Source of the DNA: a virus
Lineage: Duplodnaviria > Caudoviricetes
Virus record (IMG/VR): IMGVR_UViG_2706796489_000001
Coordinates: 17,542-81,541 of that record
DNA: 64,000 bases
Strand: one strand, 5' to 3'
Below, piece by piece: positions 17,443 through 62,595 of the stretch. Each line of letters opens with the position of its first letter. Within the stretch, counting starts at the first letter, position 1. Below the pieces are notes generated by a model. That model was not told the DNA's origin, searched no databases, and saw only the letters and a program-made list of their open reading frames with translations. Position numbers and translations under genes: made by a program.

Positions 17443-18005
17443 AGATGATCTCTCTCCAGACCACCATCATTGCGGCCGCAATAGCACTCGCGGTCGGGGG
17501 CATCGGCGGATTGGTCTCGGCATGGAGCCTCACCAGGAACCATTACATCGCCAAGATCGAATCTGAACGATCAGCTGCGAGTGAGGCCGCTCGTATCGCT
17601 GAAGCGAAGTTCAACACCACGGTGGCCAACCTCAAGTCTGCCAGCAGCCGTGAGCTAAATGAAGTATCAACTGCTCTTCAGGAGAAACTGAATGCTGCTG
17701 AAAAGATCAACGATGATTATGCTCGTCGTATCGCCACTGGTTCTCTCGTCCTGCGCGACCCGGGAGCCAGTCGCCCCCGTCAAGTATCCCAGGATCGAAG
17801 TTGCCCCGCCGCCAGCCAACGTGATGGTCAAACGGGAAGCGAACTTTCGACAGAGGCTTCTCAATTTCTTTGGGGAGAAGCCGAGCGAGCTGACCGAAAC
17901 ACCGAAGAATTGAGCGCGTGCCAGGCGGTGGCCGCGAGCTACTGGCAACTGATCAACAAGTATGGCCTGGAGATCGAAGCTCTCACGGCCACCATGATGA
18001 AGTAA
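17439..18005 (+). CDS. i-spanin (Rz-like)
   Basis: N-terminal TM then coiled coil; C-terminal L.ACQ motif. Confidence 0.85.
   Translation: MKMISLQTTIIAAAIALAVGGIGGLVSAWSLTRNHYIAKIESERSAASEAARIAEAKFNTTVANLKSASSRELNEVSTALQEKLNAAEKINDDYARRIATGSLVLRDPGASRPRQVSQDRSCPAASQRDGQTGSELSTEASQFLWGEAERADRNTEELSACQAVAASYWQLINKYGLEIEALTATMMK
17692..17913 (+). CDS. o-spanin (Rz1-like lipoprotein) embedded in i-spanin
   Basis: Alternative frame inside Rz; lipobox LSSC; Pro-rich mature part. Confidence 0.85.
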   Translation: MLLKRSTMIMLVVSPLVLSSCATREPVAPVKYPRIEVAPPPANVMVKREANFRQRLLNFFGEKPSELTETPKN

Positions 18006-32729: not shown

Positions 32730-32953
32730 TCCAGTATGTCCTCGATAACGGCGATCTGGTCGGAGTCCAGCTCGTCGCGGTTGTTTTCCAGGTACTCCGC
32801 GACCCATCCCCGATACGGGATGGACAGCCGGAGCGCTTTGCAGATTCGGGCATGAAGGAAGCTGCGGTCATCCCACGGTTTGTCCGTGATGTGTGCCAGA
32901 GCTTCCTTCAACATCTTGCCCTCATCCGAGTTCTTTCGGATGTGCGGAATCAT
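32726..32953 (-). CDS. Hypothetical protein
   Basis: ATGA coupling to PolA stop. Confidence 0.65.
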   Translation of the reverse strand: MIPHIRKNSDEGKMLKEALAHITDKPWDDRSFLHARICKALRLSIPYRGWVAEYLENNRDELDSDQIAVIEDILE

Positions 32954-35682
32954 GCTGCCTTCTTCTCCTTCTTGGGACCATCAAGGATGTAGTCCACGAT
33001 GGCCTGGCGCTCTTCGTCGTTCGCCGCCTTGCCCCAGCGGTCGGCCGATACAGCCGGCACACCATCCTGGATTTCCATGAGTTCGATCTGCCCGTTCGGA
33101 GCTTTGTCCAGGCTCCACGGTTGCAGCGTCTTGCCCACGGCGAGCGAAGAGTCCAGCTTCAGGTTGTTGATGAGACCAGCGGGTTCGATCATGACCTCGT
33201 AGAGATCCTTCATGAACGCCACGGCTTGAGAACGCGGCACCGAGTAGACCAGCTCGTCGTGGATCAACAGGAAGAAGCGGGCGCGGTAGCCCTTCTCCTT
33301 GATGACATCCTTCATGCGGCGGATCTTGCGCTTGGCCAACGCCGCGCACAAGCCCTGCACCATGGAGTTGACGGCCTGGTTGCCCGCGCGGCGGTTGATC
33401 TTCTTGATGACGACTTCACCGAAGTTGGCGATGGCCGGCACGCCATACTGCTGGAACTTCTGCCGCATGGCGTTCATCCACTCAATCGTGGATTCGAAGC
33501 GGTCACGGCGGTGATGATCCGGCAGCTCGACATAGCCCTGATCACGCGAGGCTTCGATGACGCCCAGGCGCCAGGCTTCGCCCTGCGGGAAGGTGTTGCG
33601 GTACTTGTCGGACTGTTCCCACATCTCGTCCGAAGTCCATCCCATTTCCTTGGCCGTGGTCCCCAGCGCGCCGGAGTACCAGTAGCCGAAGTTGGAGACC
33701 TTGCCGATCTTGGTCCGCATCTTCTTCTTGTCGGGATGAACGTCGTACTCGTCCGGCGACATGCCTGTGATACCGAGCACCGCCAGGCGGTGCAGATCTC
33801 GGTGAGGCCGCTGGCCATATGCTTCGAAGAAGCCCGCATCACCCGAGTATTCCCCGATGATGACCAGCTCCACCGCCGACCAGTCGGCCGACACCAGGAT
33901 GTGCTCTTCCCCCTCGGCGTCATCATCGTCCGCTTCGAAGAAGCCCCGCACATACTGGGACTCCCCGAACTTGGCCAACTGCTGGCCGTTGGGGGTTGCG
34001 CACGCGGAGCGCCGGCTGGCCAGCAAGCTGGACAAGACCGGATAAACGCGGTTGGTCTCGGGGTCAATGAGGTTCAGGTACGGCGTGATGTACAGCTTCA
34101 CGCGCTGGGCGATACCCGCCATGGCGCCGTAGGTCTGGAACACCCCCAGGCCGGCCCGGAATCGGTCGTAGGCGGGCCGCAGCTCGTCGGGTAATACCCA
34201 GGTAGCCATGTCCTCCACGGCCTCGCCCTGGGCGTCGATTTCGCGCCCATTGCTGTCTTCGATGAAACCCTTCAGCTCGCCCTCGGCGTACTTCTTGATC
34301 CAGCGGCGGCGCAGCTCGGCGCGGCAATCACCATCGGATTGGGTCTTGCCGTTGACCAGCATGAAGCTGCCGCGCATCAGGTCGTAGAGCACCACGCGCA
34401 TCGGCATGTAGTGAACCAGGTTCAACCCCTTCGATTCGGGCTTGCCCTTCTCCAGCGCCCATGCTGCCGACACCGGGGAGCGAACCTGCATCACCTGAGC
34501 GAAGTCATCCTCGCTGTCCGGGCTGTTGGCCCAGTCGATGATCTGCTTGCGGTACTTGGCCGCGTTGCCGGTCCCCTTGTTCTCATCGAAGTACCACTTG
34601 TCGTACTTGGCCAGCTTCTCGTGGATGTCGTCCGGGAACGGCAGCAAGCCCCGGATGGCCTTCTTCATGTCGCGCAGCGCCTGCGCTTCCATGGAGCGCT
34701 CGACAGTGCGGCGGTCGTAGACGGCCTGAGTGTTCATCTTGATGCCGTGTTGCCAGACCTGGGAGGCCTCGCGCACGAACGGCATCTCTTGATCCAGGTA
34801 GGTCTGGAACACGGGCGGGTTGGTCTGCATGATGTAGGCCAGCACGCGATGGAACAGCTTCACGCACCAGTAGGCGTCATCAACGCCGTAGCTGGCCACT
34901 TCCTCGCCGGTCAACTGGCCCATGTGGACCTTGCCGTCCAGCGTCTGCTGGAACGTGGCCATGTCGTAGTCGAACCACGACTTCACAGCACGCTTGAGGT
35001 CGTAGCCGATGCGGATGGCGTTGACGAAGCCGTTGTACGAGTGCTCGGCGTCCGACTCCTTGGCGATGACCTTGTACAAGATCTCTTCTTGCTCGTTGGT
35101 CATCTCCTGGCCTGGCTCGAAGCCGGCGAACACGCGCTGCACGATGGGCAGGATCTTCTCGATCCCACCCAGGCCTGGCCCATAGAAGTTCTCGCGGAAG
35201 TAGGTGTCGGGCGAGTAGGCCGACACGCACAACTGCATCGAGCACAGCACGCGCTCGCCCAGGTCGTGACCCAGGGACTTCATCATCATCGTCCACTCGT
35301 AGTTCGCGTTGTGGATGATCCAGTAGGCATCGGGATTCTTCTTCTCGATGATCTGGCGAGCCTTCTCCCACGGCACGCGGTTCTCCACGTCAGCGTGAGC
35401 GAGGTTGATGTAGTAGGCCTGATCCTTCTTGTTCTCATCAGCGTAGATCGAGAAGCCCGTCACGGTCGTGCGGTTCACGTCGAACACCAGCTTCGTGTTC
35501 GACGCCTTCTGACCTTCCTCGTTGGTCTTCATGAAGCGGTTCAGACCATCGTGGCGGTCGGCGTCGTGGGTTTCGATATCGAAGCCCACGAACTTCGCCT
35601 CGCTGACTTGCGCGATCAAGTCGGGCAGCAGCTGGTCGATGTTGCGAGCATCGACCAGGATCTTGTTCTCCGGCAACAGCAT
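32950..35682 (-). CDS. Family A DNA polymerase with 3'-5' exonuclease
   Basis: ExoI FDIETHD, ExoIII YGVDDA, motif A ADWSAVEL, motif B KVSNFGYWY, motif C IHDELV. Confidence 0.95.
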   Translation of the reverse strand: MLLPENKILVDARNIDQLLPDLIAQVSEAKFVGFDIETHDADRHDGLNRFMKTNEEGQKASNTKLVFDVNRTTVTGFSIYADENKKDQAYYINLAHADVENRVPWEKARQIIEKKNPDAYWIIHNANYEWTMMMKSLGHDLGERVLCSMQLCVSAYSPDTYFRENFYGPGLGGIEKILPIVQRVFAGFEPGQEMTNEQEEILYKVIAKESDAEHSYNGFVNAIRIGYDLKRAVKSWFDYDMATFQQTLDGKVHMGQLTGEEVASYGVDDAYWCVKLFHRVLAYIMQTNPPVFQTYLDQEMPFVREASQVWQHGIKMNTQAVYDRRTVERSMEAQALRDMKKAIRGLLPFPDDIHEKLAKYDKWYFDENKGTGNAAKYRKQIIDWANSPDSEDDFAQVMQVRSPVSAAWALEKGKPESKGLNLVHYMPMRVVLYDLMRGSFMLVNGKTQSDGDCRAELRRRWIKKYAEGELKGFIEDSNGREIDAQGEAVEDMATWVLPDELRPAYDRFRAGLGVFQTYGAMAGIAQRVKLYITPYLNLIDPETNRVYPVLSSLLASRRSACATPNGQQLAKFGESQYVRGFFEADDDDAEGEEHILVSADWSAVELVIIGEYSGDAGFFEAYGQRPHRDLHRLAVLGITGMSPDEYDVHPDKKKMRTKIGKVSNFGYWYSGALGTTAKEMGWTSDEMWEQSDKYRNTFPQGEAWRLGVIEASRDQGYVELPDHHRRDRFESTIEWMNAMRQKFQQYGVPAIANFGEVVIKKINRRAGNQAVNSMVQGLCAALAKRKIRRMKDVIKEKGYRARFFLLIHDELVYSVPRSQAVAFMKDLYEVMIEPAGLINNLKLDSSLAVGKTLQPWSLDKAPNGQIELMEIQDGVPAVSADRWGKAANDEERQAIVDYILDGPKKEKKAA

Positions 35683-36141: not shown

Positions 36142-36357
36142 TTAGATTCCTTCTTCGAGAACGGCCACTTGAGTGGCCAGGGTGCAGATGGCCAGGGCCA
36201 CGAGGCCATGGGGGTTGTTCGCCTTCACAGTGGCCATGAGCTGGGTGATGATCTCTTGGCATTTCTGCTGGTCTTCAGCAGGCATCGCGCGCAGTTCGTC
36301 TTGAGCTTCCATGAGGTCAAGTCGCGCCTTACGCAACTCGTCTTGCTTCGTGGTCAT
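36142..36357 (-). CDS. Hypothetical protein
   Basis: MTTKQDE start overlaps exonuclease stop. Confidence 0.6.
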   Translation of the reverse strand: MTTKQDELRKARLDLMEAQDELRAMPAEDQQKCQEIITQLMATVKANNPHGLVALAICTLATQVAVLEEGI

Positions 36358-37136
36358 AGGAGAAATCCTTTCAGGATGGATTCGATTTGCGACGGGTTGG
36401 GTTTCCCGAAGGTCATGCGCTTGATCAGGTCGTCGTTGGGTACGTCGCGGAACCCGGCAACGGTCCACATGGCCTTCAGGGTGGCTTCGTTTTCCTTGAC
36501 CCACGTCAAAGACGCCGGCCGCAATGCCAAAGCGTCGGCAAACATCTCCCAGTCGAGCTTCCGGGAATTTTCGAAGTAGTCGAGCCATAGTGCTTTGTCC
36601 GTTTTTTCCCAGGCCACGTCCCCGAAGAGATGTATGCCTTTGATGGTGTCAGATTTATCGCCCACGAGGGTCTTGTACAACCGAACTTCAGTCCAGTCGG
36701 TGTTCTCGTAGGTCGTGTTGTCTCGACCATGGATGGTCACGTTCACGCCGTCACACAGCGCGAGGAAGTCGCCGTCGTTGGAGTAGATCTTGATGCGTTG
36801 ACCCGTCCCGATGCGCGGTCGAACCAGCGCGCTGATCACGTCGTCGCCCTCGTAGTGGGGGACTTCGACCTGGATCACACGAGTATGCAGCAGCACTTGC
36901 TTGAACAAGTCCTGGATCTTGTAGAACTCGTCACTCGCTCTTATCCGTTTGCTCTTGTACAGCGGGTAGATATCCTGGCGGTACTTCTTGGAATGGTAGC
37001 CATCCCAGACGTAGATGACAGGATCTCCAACGGGATACGTCAGCTCGATGTCGGCCAACACGCCGCGAATCAAGCCGGTGGCTTCGAACATGCGGCGGAA
37101 GGTGTTGTTTCCGTCAACGATGTGAACTGTGGTCAC
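36354..37136 (-). CDS. 5'-3' exonuclease / flap endonuclease (RNase H-like, T5 D15 type)
   Basis: HIVDGNN, VWDG, YKSKR, EGDDVI, SNDGD, LVGDKSDTIKGI. Confidence 0.9.
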   Translation of the reverse strand: MTTVHIVDGNNTFRRMFEATGLIRGVLADIELTYPVGDPVIYVWDGYHSKKYRQDIYPLYKSKRIRASDEFYKIQDLFKQVLLHTRVIQVEVPHYEGDDVISALVRPRIGTGQRIKIYSNDGDFLALCDGVNVTIHGRDNTTYENTDWTEVRLYKTLVGDKSDTIKGIHLFGDVAWEKTDKALWLDYFENSRKLDWEMFADALALRPASLTWVKENEATLKAMWTVAGFRDVPNDDLIKRMTFGKPNPSQIESILKGFLL

Positions 37137-37140
37137 GGTG

Positions 37141-37341
37141 TCATACCTGCTTGAAAATGTGGAACTGCTCGACATCCGCGTGCCATGCTTTGGCACACTT
37201 GGCGACGACCCGATTGCACTCACGCTTAGTCTTAAACTGCGTGGCTTCGGTAGGCTTGAAGGTGCCACCGAAGTCTCCGGTTCCATCAGGGTCGAGAAGC
37301 CAATAGCCGGGGTGTGTACGACTTGAGAAATAGATAATCAT
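37141..37341 (-). CDS. Hypothetical protein
   Basis: SD AAGGA and ATG at 37341, directly after the terminator. Confidence 0.55.
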   Translation of the reverse strand: MIIYFSSRTHPGYWLLDPDGTGDFGGTFKPTEATQFKTKRECNRVVAKCAKAWHADVEQFHIFKQV

Positions 37342-37355
37342 GTCGGTCCTTGAGA

Positions 37356-37389
37356 AAAGAAAAGGGCGGAAGGTTTTATCCTTCCACCC
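37356..37389 (-). terminator. Intrinsic terminator overlapping the 3' end of the structured element
   Basis: GGGTGGAAGG-ATAAAA-CCTTCCGCCC-TTTTCTTTT. Confidence 0.8.
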
Positions 37390-37571
37390 TTTGATGGCTC
37401 CAGTCGCTGTTCGGCGTTGCTGGAGGGTCTTTAGCGAAAGCACGCATAGCGGACCCTGGGGCGTTGCCGAACTGAAGGTGCCGAGGTTTCCCGCCTACAT
37501 CGTGATGGTTGCTTCCCCATCACAAGCTCCCCTCGGGTCCGTCCACCTTCACAACTGGAGCCATCAAAGGG
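37387..37571 (-). ncRNA. Candidate 185-nt structured ncRNA or ssDNA element with a three-way junction
   Basis: Perfect 18-bp terminal inverted repeat (37387-37404/37554-37571) enclosing two nested multi-helix arms; intergenic. Confidence 0.65.
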
Positions 37572-37598
37572 CCGCGCCCTTGTGAAGCGCGGCCCCTT
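37566..37598 (-). terminator. Terminator-like hairpin after SSB (weak U tract)
   Basis: GGGCCGCGC/GCGCGGCCC stem followed by TTTG on - strand. Confidence 0.5.
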
Positions 37599-37601
37599 GC
37601 C

Positions 37602-38309
37602 TTACTCGTCGCCGCCTTCGTCCTGAGTCATCTCGCCCACCAACTCCCAGGTCATGATGCCCCAGGTGTTGTTGTTCTTGTTGCTCTTGGCTTCGAAGGA
37701 AACGACCACTTCAACGCACTTGCCCAGCAGGCCGGCGTTCTGCACCGCCTTGTAGAAGCTTTCCCACGCCGACCAGTTCGTGGTCGAGGTGGAATAGCCA
37801 GCGCGCTGACCGGCCTTGGCCAGCTCGACGCCCTTGGGCGACTTGATGTCTTCCAGCAGCACCATCGGCACATCGACCGAACGGTACGGACGGGCCTTCG
37901 GGTCCAGCGCCACGGCCTTCTGGATGGCCTCGTTCCACGGCACGCCCTTGTCGGACATGGCGCCGTCGTAGGTGGACCAGTATTGCGCGGGGTTGCCGGC
38001 CTTGATGGATTGCTTGCACGAGAAGCCCACGCCGTCGGTCATGTCGATGTAGGCCTTGAAGCTGGAAACCAGCTCTTGGGTCTGACCGACCAGCAGGCCG
38101 AACTCCTTGCACTTGACCCAGACATCGACGGTCATGCCGCCAGCCATCAGGGTTTCCATCGACATCTTCTGGCCAGTGGTGGCCACCGCGCCGCCCGAGG
38201 GTTGGGTCGTGGCTACCGCCGTGTTGGCCGGCGCTTGCTGGGCGACTTGTGCGGCTGCACCAGCGGCGTTCTGCGCGGCTTGAATGGCGGCTTGGATAGG
38301 ATCACTCAT
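37602..38309 (-). CDS. Single-stranded DNA-binding protein (putative)
   Basis: Position in replication module, aromatic-rich OB-like core, acidic tail QDEGGDE, strong SD. Confidence 0.65.
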   Translation of the reverse strand: MSDPIQAAIQAAQNAAGAAAQVAQQAPANTAVATTQPSGGAVATTGQKMSMETLMAGGMTVDVWVKCKEFGLLVGQTQELVSSFKAYIDMTDGVGFSCKQSIKAGNPAQYWSTYDGAMSDKGVPWNEAIQKAVALDPKARPYRSVDVPMVLLEDIKSPKGVELAKAGQRAGYSTSTTNWSAWESFYKAVQNAGLLGKCVEVVVSFEAKSNKNNNTWGIMTWELVGEMTQDEGGDE

Positions 38310-38344
38310 TTTAATGCTCCAGGGTATGTTTCAGTTTCGATATG

Positions 38345-38379
38345 TCTCACCAACTTGGTGAGATGGCAAGATCATACCA
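38345..38379 (-). promoter_or_regulatory. Extended -10 promoter (TGGTATGAT) with downstream 19-bp palindrome TCTCACCAA-C-TTGGTGAGA
   Basis: Intergenic, upstream of SSB; perfect palindrome 38345-38363. Confidence 0.5.
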
Positions 38380-38408
38380 TGGTTGTTAAAGGATGGAAGA
38401 TCCATTTA

Positions 38409-38807
38409 TCAGATAAATGTGAAGTTCTCGTCCTCCGGTTTGTGTGCTGCATTAGTCGAGTCAACCAGTTTGTTGAACTGGTCAACAGGTATGTCCCAGT
38501 GCTGGTGAGCATCAACATCCACCATCACGTCATGCTCGGTGCCGCACGGCGTGTCGTAGGTGATGAACACGAGATGCCCCATGATCATGATGGCCTGGGG
38601 ACCAACAGGTTGGGTGTCCAGTTCCACGATGTCACGAGCGGCTTCGAATACCGGGAAGTGCTTGCCCAACAGATCGTTGATGGCCTCGTGGTTGTCGCAG
38701 ACCACCTCTTCCAAGATGATCTCCAGCTCAACCTTCTTGGCCTTCGGGTCGTCCTTCCAGGTGTGTAGCTTGACCAGGTAGGCGAAGGGAACTTTTCCTG
38801 TGACCAT
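38409..38807 (-). CDS. Hypothetical protein
   Basis: SD GGAGG; acidic. Confidence 0.7.
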   Translation of the reverse strand: MVTGKVPFAYLVKLHTWKDDPKAKKVELEIILEEVVCDNHEAINDLLGKHFPVFEAARDIVELDTQPVGPQAIMIMGHLVFITYDTPCGTEHDVMVDVDAHQHWDIPVDQFNKLVDSTNAAHKPEDENFTFI

Positions 38808-38816
38808 GATGGCCTC

Positions 38817-39953
38817 CTATTGCATGCGCTTCTGGATGTCGCCCAGGGACCACTTGTCCGGGAAGTTCTTGGTCATGTAGACCGAGATCTCGCAAGCCGC
38901 GTTGTAGACCCAGCGAGGCACCTGAACGGGAGAGCCGAGGATCGCAAGATCCACCATGTCGGTGTTCAACTGGAAGGCATTGGCCCAGGCCACGATCTGT
39001 TTGGCGTGAGCGAGCTTGCCTTCGATGCCGCCGTAAGAGGTGTGGTAGTCGTCGCCCAAGACCTCTTGGCCATACGCCATGTCGGGCTTGGCCGGCGCTT
39101 CAACGAAGCAGTCGATCAACTCGCCACTGGGGCTGCGGCGTTCACGCACGCGCCACCCGAGGTTCGCACCGACCACCGAGGGTGGCGTGGCGTAGTGCGG
39201 GATGCTTTCCCACTTTTCGCGGTTGAACGGCATGTCTTCCAGGTCTTCCATCGCCAGATGAACCTTCCCGGATTCTCGGTGCGTGTGCTTCCAGATGACG
39301 GACGACAAGGGGGAGGGTTCAGGCGTCTGGTCCGCCTTGTTCCGCAGCCAGTAGATGGCATTGTCCAGGCTCATCGTGTCAAAGCCCGGGATGTTGCAGA
39401 AGCTGATAGCACGTCGGGCTTTCTCCAGATCGTGCTTGTAGCCGATGTTCACCCAGCCTTGCCGTTCCATCTCATCCTGGTCGGCGTCGGCGCTGGCCAG
39501 CGGGGTGGTGTAGAGCGTGCGCACCTCTTTTCCGTTCTCGTCGCAGTTGGCGAGCGCCTGAGCGTCGATGTCTTCCCAGGTGCCGTTGGAATGGAACACC
39601 TGATGCACCGGAGTTGCCATGGGGATACGTTGGTTGGCAAGCCACTGGGCTGCAACCTTCTCCGCTTCCTCTTTGCTGGCCAGCCCTCTCGCAATCTGAA
39701 AGACACGCCGGCCTTTGCACCCCCAACGGTTCACGTCCTCGAAAACATCGGTGCCATCAATCCGCACGCACCAGCCGCTGCCGATGGTGTCGCAGACATA
39801 CACCCCCTCAACCCAATCCAGGTCGGGGCGCACGCCATCATGGCGCTTGACGGCCTTCGTGGTGGCGCGCGCCGCTTTCCAGGCAGCGAAGGGAGTGACC
39901 ACGCTCGCGGTCTTCTCCCAGGCTTGGAACTCTTCCAGTTCTTTGTCGATCAT
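38817..39953 (-). CDS. Hypothetical mosaic protein
   Basis: 378 aa, coupled to helicase stop. Confidence 0.65.
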   Translation of the reverse strand: MIDKELEEFQAWEKTASVVTPFAAWKAARATTKAVKRHDGVRPDLDWVEGVYVCDTIGSGWCVRIDGTDVFEDVNRWGCKGRRVFQIARGLASKEEAEKVAAQWLANQRIPMATPVHQVFHSNGTWEDIDAQALANCDENGKEVRTLYTTPLASADADQDEMERQGWVNIGYKHDLEKARRAISFCNIPGFDTMSLDNAIYWLRNKADQTPEPSPLSSVIWKHTHRESGKVHLAMEDLEDMPFNREKWESIPHYATPPSVVGANLGWRVRERRSPSGELIDCFVEAPAKPDMAYGQEVLGDDYHTSYGGIEGKLAHAKQIVAWANAFQLNTDMVDLAILGSPVQVPRWVYNAACEISVYMTKNFPDKWSLGDIQKRMQ

Positions 39954-41401
39954 GATGCCTCCATAAACACCGCCATGCTGGCCTTGCGGTCAGCGATCTT
40001 GTTCACGTCGTAGATGCCGCCTTCAATGGCCTCTTCGTCCAGGTTCTGCTGCGACAGCTTGTAGATCTCCTTCGTAGGATCAACCAGGTGGGATTCACGA
40101 GACTTCATCTCGATGATCTTCATGATGCGCTGGTCAATCGAGTCGCGGTATTCCAGCACGTAGATCAGCAGCGGCGTCTCGCGCTTGCCGCGAATGCCCC
40201 GGCGATACGCCTGCATGAAGGAGTCGTCTTGGTAATCTAGCGAAGCGAACACCATAACCCTCAGATGGTTCCAGTTGAACCCGATGCCGGCCGTGGCGGG
40301 CGAGGCCACCACGCAGTCGAGCAAGCCGGCCTGGAACTGTGCGTCGATCTCGGCGCGGCGCGCGGCCGACACCGTACCGTTGATCAGACCCGTGCGCAGG
40401 CCAAGCGACTTGGCCAGCTCCACGATGCGCAGTTGCTCGGGGATGAGTGAGGCGAAGACCGCAATGGGTTCGCCCGACTGCACGGCGTTGCCCAGGTGGA
40501 TCTTCAGGCGCTCATCCTTGCCCGTCGTGCCGACCTTCAGGCCGAACGTCTCGGGATGAGCCATGAGCTGGCGGCAACGAATCGCCGACGTGCCGGGAGA
40601 TCCAGCCGACAAGAACGAATCTTCCAGCTCGACCAGTGCGTCGGCTTCCATCGAGTCGTAGACCTTGCGCTGCGCGGGACTCATGTCGCACAGCTCGGGG
40701 ATGATGACTTTCGACTCCGGCCCGTGGACCTCTTCGAAGGTGTGGCGCACGGCCACGTTCATGAAGATCTGGCGCAGCTTCTCGTGGTTGCGCCACCCAG
40801 TGATCTTGCCACCATCGTCGCGCACGGCGTGGTAGCCCAGGAACGCGCCGTAGGTGCCGTAGAAGCGCGGCTCGATGATGTTCAAGGCCGGGTAGGCCGA
40901 GGTCAGCCGGCCCTTGATGATGGTGCCAGTCATGCCGAGGAAGGTGTCAACTTCCTTCATCGAGTCATAGAGCGCCTGGGTGCGGCCGGAGTCATGACCC
41001 GCGTAGCCCAGGTGCATCTCGTCCACCGTCAAGTGGCCGATCTGCGGGTGATGGTGAAGGATGTTCTCCCAGTCCGAGGACCAGCGGTCAAAGCCCATCA
41101 GCAAGACCTTCGGCTCGCGGCGCAGCAGCATCTGTTCACGTTGTGCCGGCGTGCCGTCGAGGATCAAGACCTCTTCGTCGCGGAAGTGGCTGAATTCCAG
41201 CAAGTCAACCTTGTTCTTGCGCAGGAGCGACTTGGGCATGGCCCACACCGACTTGGTGTTCTTCTCGCTGGCCAGATACCACGAGTACATCGCGGCGCTG
41301 CCGGTCTTCTGCGCGCCAGGGTCCGACAGGTTCAGGCAGCGGCGCGTCTGAATATAGAAGGCCAGGTCAACGATCTGGTGCGGGCGGGGAGTCTTCTTCA
41401 T
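39950..41401 (-). CDS. SNF2-like superfamily 2 helicase
   Basis: PRPHQ Q-motif, DPGAQKT, VDEMH, MTGT, GIGFNW, QAYRRGIR. Confidence 0.9.
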   Translation of the reverse strand: MKKTPRPHQIVDLAFYIQTRRCLNLSDPGAQKTGSAAMYSWYLASEKNTKSVWAMPKSLLRKNKVDLLEFSHFRDEEVLILDGTPAQREQMLLRREPKVLLMGFDRWSSDWENILHHHPQIGHLTVDEMHLGYAGHDSGRTQALYDSMKEVDTFLGMTGTIIKGRLTSAYPALNIIEPRFYGTYGAFLGYHAVRDDGGKITGWRNHEKLRQIFMNVAVRHTFEEVHGPESKVIIPELCDMSPAQRKVYDSMEADALVELEDSFLSAGSPGTSAIRCRQLMAHPETFGLKVGTTGKDERLKIHLGNAVQSGEPIAVFASLIPEQLRIVELAKSLGLRTGLINGTVSAARRAEIDAQFQAGLLDCVVASPATAGIGFNWNHLRVMVFASLDYQDDSFMQAYRRGIRGKRETPLLIYVLEYRDSIDQRIMKIIEMKSRESHLVDPTKEIYKLSQQNLDEEAIEGGIYDVNKIADRKASMAVFMEAS

Positions 41402-43293: not shown

Positions 43294-43381
43294 TGGTACA
43301 GGTGGCGGGTATCGAACCTAAACACTCGTCAGTGCGCGCCTTCCGGTTAAGAACCGGGTGCTCTCCTTGAGCTACACCTGT
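43294..43381 (-). tRNA. Atypical tRNA-Lys(CUU) with 16-nt insertion in the T-stem
   Basis: Acceptor ACAGGTG/CACCTGT+A+CCA; D-arm GCTC/GAGC; anticodon loop TT-CTT-AA; T-loop TTCGATA. Confidence 0.7.
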
Positions 43382-61888: not shown

Positions 61889-61991
61889 AGGGTTTACCCT
61901 CGAAATGGGTCAAAAAGTGGTCAAAAAGTGAGCAGAATCTGCGGCGCAGAGCGGGAGCAGGAGACGGGGGATTTATCATATACACCCTACC

Positions 61992-62004
61992 TAAGTCCTT
62001 GATT
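61992..62004 (-). promoter_or_regulatory. IHF consensus site
   Basis: AATCAAGGACTTA matches WATCAANNNNTTR exactly; AT-rich context. Confidence 0.5.
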
Positions 62005-62010
62005 TGCAAG

Positions 62011-62034
62011 GAGCGGGAGCGGGAGCGGGAGCGG
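62011..62034 (+). repeat. Tandem repeat (GAGCGG)x4
   Basis: Read directly from sequence. Confidence 0.9.
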
Positions 62035-62068
62035 GAAATGGAGCAGATTCGCAGGCCTGAAGATGGCA

Positions 62069-62443
62069 TTTTGGGTGGAGACAAATGCTCATTTCTTTTT
62101 TATAGGTATATTTATTTACCCTATAAATGGTGGCCCTTAAACATCAGAAAAAACGAATTATCTCCACCCAAAAGGAGATCGAGAAAATTGCTCTGTCCCT
62201 CAATGGTCTAGCCTGGCGGAAAATCCTTTGTGGTCAATAGGTTAGACCCTGTGTATATGATAAATCCCCAAGACCCAAGATCGGATCTTGCGAAAACAGA
62301 GGTCGGGGACAGTGCGAACCGAAAAATTATCCGATAAATGGAAGAAACTCATCGGTGTACTTTTCGGCCCGCTGTCTCCACCCAAAATTTCAGGCGCGGG
62401 CGGTAGCCGGCCAAAAGGATGAGACGGGAATCCCCACCCAAAG
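62069..62443. repeat. Iteron-like TCTCCACCCAAAA repeats
   Basis: Inverted copy 62069-62081, direct copies 62161-62173 and 62375-62387, variant TCCCCACCCAAAG 62431-62443. Confidence 0.8.
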
Positions 62444-62595
62444 GGGGACGGACTCCGTAGAGGGCGCGGGCGTGGTAGCGGTGTTTAACCTTTTCGTGAC
62501 GCCCTGCCCACTGTTGTATTTGCGCAACAACTTTTGAAGTTACTTGACTTTCCCTCAAAAGTGCGCTACCACGCCAACGCCCAATTTAACTCCAA

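Follow-up and report, generated by a model that had tools for sequence, protein, structure and literature searches.

A probable structured RNA of a new family between the SSB-like and exonuclease genes of an 81.5-kb phage

The window, that is, the whole stretch of DNA analysed, comprises 64,000 nucleotides of the IMG/VR virus record IMGVR_UViG_2706796489_000001 (positions 17,542 to 81,541), which has a length of 81,541 bp and direct terminal repeats of 1,466 bp. The element described here lies in the replication module, where every gene around it is encoded on the minus strand. A single homologue of the element was retrieved, on IMGVR_UViG_3300017560_000009 (L003, L028 and L050; called L003 below). 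The genes of the locus and the sites before the SSB-like gene, in window coordinates and from upstream to downstream, are the following:

39950-41401, minus strand: helicase
38817-39953, minus strand: phrog_25727 protein
38409-38807, minus strand: ORF of 132 aa
38371-38379, minus strand: extended -10-like sequence TGGTATGAT before the SSB-like gene, conserved in L003
38340-38362, minus strand: CTCACCAA-G-TTGGTGAG, a near-perfect palindrome within the SSB-like gene's 5' leader that is also conserved in L003
37602-38309, minus strand: SSB-like protein of 235 aa, upstream of the element, with a predicted gp32-like OB-fold core and an acidic C-terminal tail
37141-37341, minus strand: ORF of 66 aa with its own RBS, between the terminator T2 (below) and the exonuclease gene
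36354-37136, minus strand: 5'-3' exonuclease / RNase H with a GTG start, downstream of the element
32950-35682, minus strand: family-A DNA polymerase, farther downstream

An earlier note on this DNA had placed the element beside an SSB gene. The position is correct, and the identity of the gene is borne out in part. The 235-aa protein was without match in the Pfam and PHROG search, and its family comprises 55 relatives, all of them annotated as 'hypothetical' and none with a Pfam domain on record. The AlphaFold model has a mean pLDDT of 82, with a disordered N-terminal region and the acidic tail at the end, and the cores of T4 gp32 and the RB69 SSB were among its best matches in the PDB, at a low TM of about 0.3. 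Judged from this model the protein appears to be a gp32-like OB-fold SSB, and the label 'SSB-like' is reasonable but not proven. The 66-aa ORF had no Pfam or PHROG match either. It is missing from L003, which is otherwise collinear and where the exonuclease gene comes directly after T2, and its presence in the window would fit another indel at an insertion hot spot.

The extended -10-like TGGTATGAT is a candidate promoter of a transcript that would read into the element. A sigma-70 scan in which the -35 hexamer was required reported no promoter from TGGTATGAT to the exonuclease gene, and between the SSB-like gene and the element there is neither a promoter-like site nor room for one. A search of the phage genome for a T7-type RNA polymerase was empty, as were its controls. 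The palindrome lies just downstream of TGGTATGAT, where it could serve as an operator or form a hairpin in the leader. Two further features of the window were recorded. The tRNA-Lys(CUU) at 43294-43381 on the minus strand is unusually long (88 nt); Achromobacter phage 2-1, whose gene order matches the window, has an annotated tRNA-Lys(ctt) of 87 nt upstream of its helicase module. Close to the window's right end, long inverted repeats are clustered at 61967-62582: a 19-nt perfect pair (61967/62251), a 16-nt perfect pair (62068/62373) and a 35-nt imperfect pair (62062/62146).

The element comprises about 190 non-coding bases and is a three-way junction formed by a closing helix (P1) and two long irregular arms (P2 and P3). 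Its parts are the following:

37387-37571, minus strand: whole element, P1 with arms P2 and P3, from the folds and a 63-pair consensus with L003
37551-37571, minus strand: P1 5' strand CCCUUUGAUGGCUCCAGUUGU, whose outer CCCUUU is common to the 3' strand of the hairpin T1 (below)
37387-37407, minus strand: P1 3' strand GCGACUGGAGCCAUCAAAGGG, whose outer AAAGGG is common to the 5' strand of T2
37473-37550, minus strand: arm P2, formed by GAAGGUG/CACCUUC, a 7-nt bulge, CCGAGG/CCUCGG, GUGAUGG/CCAUCAC and the loop GGAAGCAA
37509-37516, minus strand: apical loop L2, GGAAGCAA, complementary to L3 and a candidate kissing loop
37409-37472, minus strand: arm P3, formed by GUUCGGC/GCCGAAC, symmetric AAC/AAC and CCC/CCA internal loops, AGGGUC/GACCCU and GCG-UGCUUU-CGC
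37437-37442, minus strand: apical loop L3, UGCUUU, partner of L2

This architecture agrees with the one that the earlier note had drawn from the letters of the sequence. The 18-bp perfect inverted repeat (37387-37404/37554-37571) was listed by the repeat finder, all inner helices sit where they had been placed, and the linkers of 0-2 nt at the junction were borne out in the fold. The extension of P1 on the minus strand was likewise found: 18 Watson-Crick pairs are followed by U-G, G-C and U-G, which gives 21 bp. Folding returned the three-way junction on both strands, with z = -5.8 on the plus strand and -6.0 on the minus strand, and 0 of 200 shuffles folded as well as the element. With DNA parameters the single strands also fold strongly (z -7.8 and -6.6 for the two strands). 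Among 4068 windows of 200 nt covering the whole 81.5-kb genome, the minus-strand window of the element ranks first in GC-corrected folding energy, with a z of -3.59 against -3.50 for the next window. Since this margin is narrow, folding energy alone is not decisive, and the decisive evidence is the covariation given below.

The element is flanked by two hairpins, T1 and T2, and by two copies of a short direct repeat:

37566-37598, minus strand: T1, hairpin after the SSB-like gene, at the position homologous to the single terminator of the relatives
37566-37572, minus strand: first copy of the direct repeat GCCCTTT, at the end of T1, left boundary of the inserted block
37351-37392, minus strand: T2, a 13-bp hairpin (37361-37392) followed by the U-tract UCUUUUCUCA
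37361-37367, minus strand: second copy of GCCCTTT, at the end of T2, right boundary of the inserted block

At the T1 position the relatives contain a hairpin followed by TTTTTT or TTTTTCT, that is, by 5-6 Ts. In the window T1 is followed by UUUGAUGG without a U-tract, the only Us being the UUU before GAUGG, which are paired within the stem, and the terminator scan did not report it. Both the window and L003 have T1, then TTTGATGG, then the element and T2, with a T-tract only after T2. The latter hairpin has the form of an intrinsic terminator, a G+C-rich stem of 13 pairs followed by TCTTTTCTCA, and was the sole terminator-like site that the scan reported within 36500-38800. Its stem-loop and first Us are identical in L003, where the U-tract is slightly different. 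On this alignment with the relatives, the block formed by the element and its own strong terminator T2 is shown to sit within the U-tract of their T1. The region 37342-37604 of the minus strand, which contains the element and both hairpins, folds with z = -9.1. In this fold T1, P1 and T2 are three abutting helices without linkers, the same being true of L003, and the outer six pairs of P1 (CCCUUU/AAAGGG) can alternatively pair inside T1 and inside T2.

Covariation was assessed with the L003 copy and amounts to one pairwise comparison. Aligned with each other, the copies show 85% identity, 23 substitutions and 5 gap columns, a divergence similar to that of the flanking genes (83% and 73% identity). 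Although 16 of the 23 substitutions fall at paired positions, none of the 63 consensus pairs is broken, and all are paired in both sequences. The earlier note had looked to compensatory changes in a homologous region, and six pairs with double compensatory changes were found, distributed over four helices: two in P1, three in apical P2 and one in P3, those of P1 being adjacent (CU/AG in the window, UC/GA in L003). Four more pairs changed on one side to G-U, two of them in P3. When the partners were slid by 1-3 columns as a control, pairing fell to 27-49% and the double changes to zero. Six pair positions contain a G-U in one or both sequences, and read on the plus strand each of them would become an A-C mismatch; the covariance model scored 239 bits on the minus strand against 28 bits on the plus strand. 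The G-U pairs are valid only on the minus strand, which is the sense of the flanking genes, and an RNA is therefore favoured.

Inverted repeats can acquire mirrored changes that look compensatory, without selection, by template-switch mutation, and G-T wobbles are tolerated in DNA. The element could still play a role at the DNA level. A real and selected RNA structure on the minus strand is nevertheless the highly probable explanation of the pattern. An indel breaks every overlapping reading frame between the two copies, and a peptide-coding reading was rejected because these frames differ between them. A search of the protein database with a spurious 81-aa ORF that overlaps the element found no similar called protein.

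The apical loops L2 and L3 can form five Watson-Crick pairs and one G-U in the window and six Watson-Crick pairs in L003, where a G to A change turns the G-U into A-U. They contain the only Watson-Crick run of at least four among all unpaired segments of the element, with P of about 0.007 for random loops. Since the arms are of similar length, a kissing contact between L2 and L3 would be geometrically plausible. In arm P3 an apical block of 30 nt is invariant between the two phages. Two further motifs were considered and discarded. Pairing of the 7-nt bulge with P3 is broken by the L003 change, and the 8 GGA (CsrA-type) motifs, one of which is lost in L003, were judged to be no clear enrichment.

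The view that the element is not a tRNA, a tmRNA or a recognised riboswitch was upheld. With Rfam 15 at gathering thresholds the search of the window found only the tRNA at 43297-43381, and the element matched no family. A permissive search of 37200-37750 gave BjrC68 as the best match, at 18.6 bits against a threshold of 39 and covering only T2, and the Infernal check thus ended without a family match at either setting. ARAGORN placed the element in no tRNA or tmRNA family. As for the bacterial Y RNAs (YrlA-like), PF05731 (TROVE, Ro/Rsr) was absent and no Rfam Y RNA was matched. The proposal of a novel phage ncRNA is supported by the lack of an Rfam match, by the compensatory changes and by the G-U pairs on the transcribed minus strand. 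The element is new as an RNA family and a member of none of the systems with which it was compared.

The distribution among relatives was examined at the same locus and in whole genomes. Another 41 distinct syntenic loci were fetched from IMG/VR, metagenomes and genomes, of which 39 were usable. In about 35 relatives the element is missing: the SSB-like gene is followed by a single G+C-rich hairpin and its T-tract, and then by an RBS and the start of the exonuclease gene, with gaps of 10-75 nt between the two genes. The covariance model did not find the element in 11 whole genomes of relatives either, these being 10 rated at least 90% complete by CheckV and the complete isolate Achromobacter phage 2-1. 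A distant relative (L042:3170-3642, IMGVR_UViG_3300014055_000004) has 471 nt without an ORF of at least 60 aa in the same position, including a T-arm-like GGGTTCGACTCCCC...CGCCACC stretch. This gap was set aside as a structured RNA, with no ARAGORN, tRNA or Rfam match and a z of only -1.8.

Phage 2-1 is a cultured, close relative, and its whole genome contains no element. At the site of the element it has a normal T1 with a U-tract and then an unannotated ORF of 153 aa with an HNH motif, EVDHVVPL...HVPWNLEV...NRSKHN (L001:3469-3930, minus strand, OQ974181), which fills the 515-bp 'empty' gap between the SSB-like and RNase H genes. By its motif this ORF is probably a free-standing homing endonuclease at the site of the element. 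The exonuclease of phage 2-1 is 88.5% identical to that of L003, and the one of the window is 72-75% identical to both. The simplest history compatible with these identities would be that the element was already present before L003 and phage 2-1 diverged, and that it was later lost or replaced in the latter. Such a loss or replacement would make the element dispensable and the site an insertion hot spot. Judging from this close cultured relative without it, the element is non-essential. It is a lineage-specific insertion, the known carriers being two phages of about 80 kb with Achromobacter-like hosts.

Searches beyond the syntenic loci were in agreement. The element is single-copy in the phage genome, and no copy was identified by blastn against the INPHARED phages and the PLSDB plasmids. 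IMG/VR was also scanned for exact patterns taken from P1, the apex of P3, the junction and T2, which returned only the L003 phage and three chance matches (L004, L005 and L059); the covariance model rejected these three. Burkholderia paludis was chosen for the bacterial genomes as host of a related prophage, with about 950 genomes searched in all: BLAST found no copy in 400 genomes of its family and 400 of its order, nor did the covariance model in 150 genomes from the same family and order. A 27-nt junction stretch (GGCACCTTCAGTTCGGCAACGCC...) was matched with 89-93% identity in about 20 genomes of the B. paludis family and at L052:1500-1530. It was rejected as a chance match: in L052, the case examined, it is antisense to a long conserved protein-coding ORF, close to the 3' end of the latter, and it recurs across genomes because the gene is orthologous.

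The interpretation that we prefer, tentatively but ahead of the others, is composite: the element would be a dispensable new RNA that is transcribed together with the SSB-like gene, forms the 3' end of its mRNA, probably undergoes processing at the long stem and is recognised by a partner. As T1 is without a U-tract, transcripts from the promoter of the SSB-like gene would read through it, copy the element and stop mostly at T2, and the element would thus form the 3' tail of that mRNA, in which T1, P1 and T2 would stack as three abutting helices. RNase III substrates are uninterrupted double-stranded RNAs of about two helical turns, and a long perfect helix such as P1 is typical by this standard. 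P1 has the length in question, being of 21 bp alone and of 15 bp when T1 and T2 are fully formed, and this perfect duplex would be cut by the RNase III of the host. The enzyme cuts intramolecular stems in vivo, affecting maturation and stability (PMC6212723). Cutting would separate a SSB-like mRNA capped by T1 from a compact RNA of about 150-190 nt; alternatively, the element would stay in place as a nuclease-resistant 3' end. The parallel arms with their loop-loop contact and the invariant apical block suggest recognition by a specific partner, which could be a protein or another RNA. A point against the composite reading is that two elaborate arms are more than a site for processing or stabilisation would require.

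A possible, if unlikely, alternative is that the structure acts purely in cis, in the 3'-UTR or between the cistrons, as a nuclease-resistant cap or a processing site with no separate RNA and no partner. It would then determine how stable the SSB-like mRNA is and in what proportion the SSB-like protein and the downstream replication proteins are made. The location between a disabled and a strong terminator, where the relatives have one leaky terminator, is in keeping with such a role, as are the long perfect duplex of P1 and the fact that the element is dispensable. Simple hairpins would do for this purpose, however, and here two irregular arms, the loop complementarity and the 30-nt block are all kept.

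Rather improbable is a relic or a non-autonomous mobile DNA, MITE-like or palindrome-associated, that landed in the terminator and whose structure serves transposition. The 18-bp perfect terminal inverted repeats, the 7-nt direct repeat flanking the inserted block and the hot spot, with the HNH gene in phage 2-1 and the 66-aa ORF in the window, are what suggests it. MITEs are multi-copy, whereas this element has one genome copy, without dispersed copies in the searched sets: genomes, plasmids, phages and IMG/VR beyond the one relative. Inverted repeats and GCCCTTT are both present, but the right copy of the latter lies beyond T2 and not beside the right arm, so that T2 is found between arm and direct repeat, unlike the TIR-plus-TSD layout. 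The search of the phage genome for a Y1 transposase found none. Every pair has been conserved although the copies have diverged by 15%, and selection in the phage is thereby implied.

An improbable but more ambitious possibility is a new class of phage regulatory or counter-defence RNA, in which the compact three-way junction with its kissing loops would bind one particular factor of the host or of the phage. A nuclease or an immune sensor would be examples, as would the gp32-like SSB that the phage itself encodes. The phage would have acquired this RNA as a cassette that brought its own terminator, and the cassette would be interchangeable with homing-endonuclease genes at the hot spot in the replication module.

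We regard as quite improbable a switch responsive to a ligand or a protein, in which P1 would compete with T2 (through AAAGGG) and with T1 (through CCCUUU) and the binding of a factor would adjust how much transcription continues into the genes of the exonuclease and the polymerase. In its favour are an architecture resembling that of purine riboswitches (P1, two parallel arms and kissing loops), the 6 nt that the P1 3' strand has in common with the terminator, and the lack of space for a separate promoter before the downstream genes. But 15 perfect pairs of P1 remain even with T1 and T2 fully formed, and the exchange of six pairs is nearly neutral in energy, with T2 forming anyway. The junction is almost without unpaired conserved nucleotides for a binding pocket, and the relatives run the same operon without the element.

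A folded ssDNA signal that serves for priming, as a single-strand origin or as a nuclease decoy is very improbable, and the proposal of the earlier note in this sense did not prosper. The location between the SSB-like and exonuclease genes and the strong folds obtained with DNA parameters are in its favour. The element is absent, however, from the 11 whole genomes, including that of the cultured phage, and from the roughly 35 syntenic loci, and it lies in sense orientation between two terminators. One-sided changes all yield G-U on the transcribed strand. Cumulative GC skew has no feature at the site, its minimum being at 19.8 kb of the window, where gene orientation switches.

Hardly credible is a retron-like msr-msd template or mimic, the decoy idea of the earlier note, for its sole retron-like trait, an 18-bp inverted repeat around hairpins that recalls a1/a2, is not specific to retrons, a search of the whole 81.5-kb genome for PF00078 (reverse transcriptase) had no match where control genomes did, and Infernal found no retron-like Rfam family.

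To our knowledge, apart from the tRNAs, a function has been established for few of the structured RNAs that virulent phages encode. The pRNA, the put RNA, the RNA anti-CRISPRs and the cabRNA each uncovered a new mechanism. The present element is a well-defined fold of 190 nt with clear boundaries, and a clean case of an RNA cassette inserted into an intrinsic terminator that it disables. Natural 'minus' alleles, in phage 2-1 and many relatives, together with a cultured close relative make experiments straightforward. If it were merely an mRNA 3' cap, the result would be a modest annotation.

Several known systems share traits with the element. Like the T7 R-sites, lambda sib and the stems of rRNA precursors, it has a long perfect duplex formed from the flanks of a structured RNA, and like the phage RNase III sites it lies between cistrons of an operon, where a cut would give the mRNA upstream a hairpin that protects its 3' end. 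Each T7 site consists of one hairpin of about 60 nt that contains an internal loop, whereas P1 encloses a covarying three-way junction of 150 nt. The 3'-UTR sRNAs CpxQ and SroC also follow a stop codon, without an evident promoter of their own, and end at the intrinsic terminator of the operon; they are short, Hfq-dependent and have single-stranded seeds, in contrast to this almost fully paired, three-armed element.

Purine riboswitches also have a P1 whose 3' strand extends into the terminator, and two arms of similar length whose apical loops are complementary. The element is about 2.5 times larger, its P1 is far too stable for ligand dependence, its junction has almost no unpaired conserved nucleotides and there was no Rfam match. 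The phi29 pRNA (about 120-174 nt) is also phage-encoded, with a three-way junction and complementary loops. It belongs to protein-primed phages and is found at the genome end, whereas the element is dispensable and lies in the replication module of an 81-kb genome with direct terminal repeats.

The Correia elements of Neisseria share the terminal inverted repeats and the intergenic insertion; they are co-transcribed into mRNAs in which RNase III cuts the hairpins, a condition like the one predicted here. They occur in hundreds of copies with TA duplications, whereas this element is single-copy. The retron msr-msd shares the terminal inverted repeats around internal hairpins and differs in that no reverse transcriptase was found here. 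By analogy, then, the element would work most like a structured RNA bracketed by an RNase III site or like an RNA derived from a 3'-UTR, and in shape it resembles an oversized junction of the purine-riboswitch type or the phi29 pRNA.
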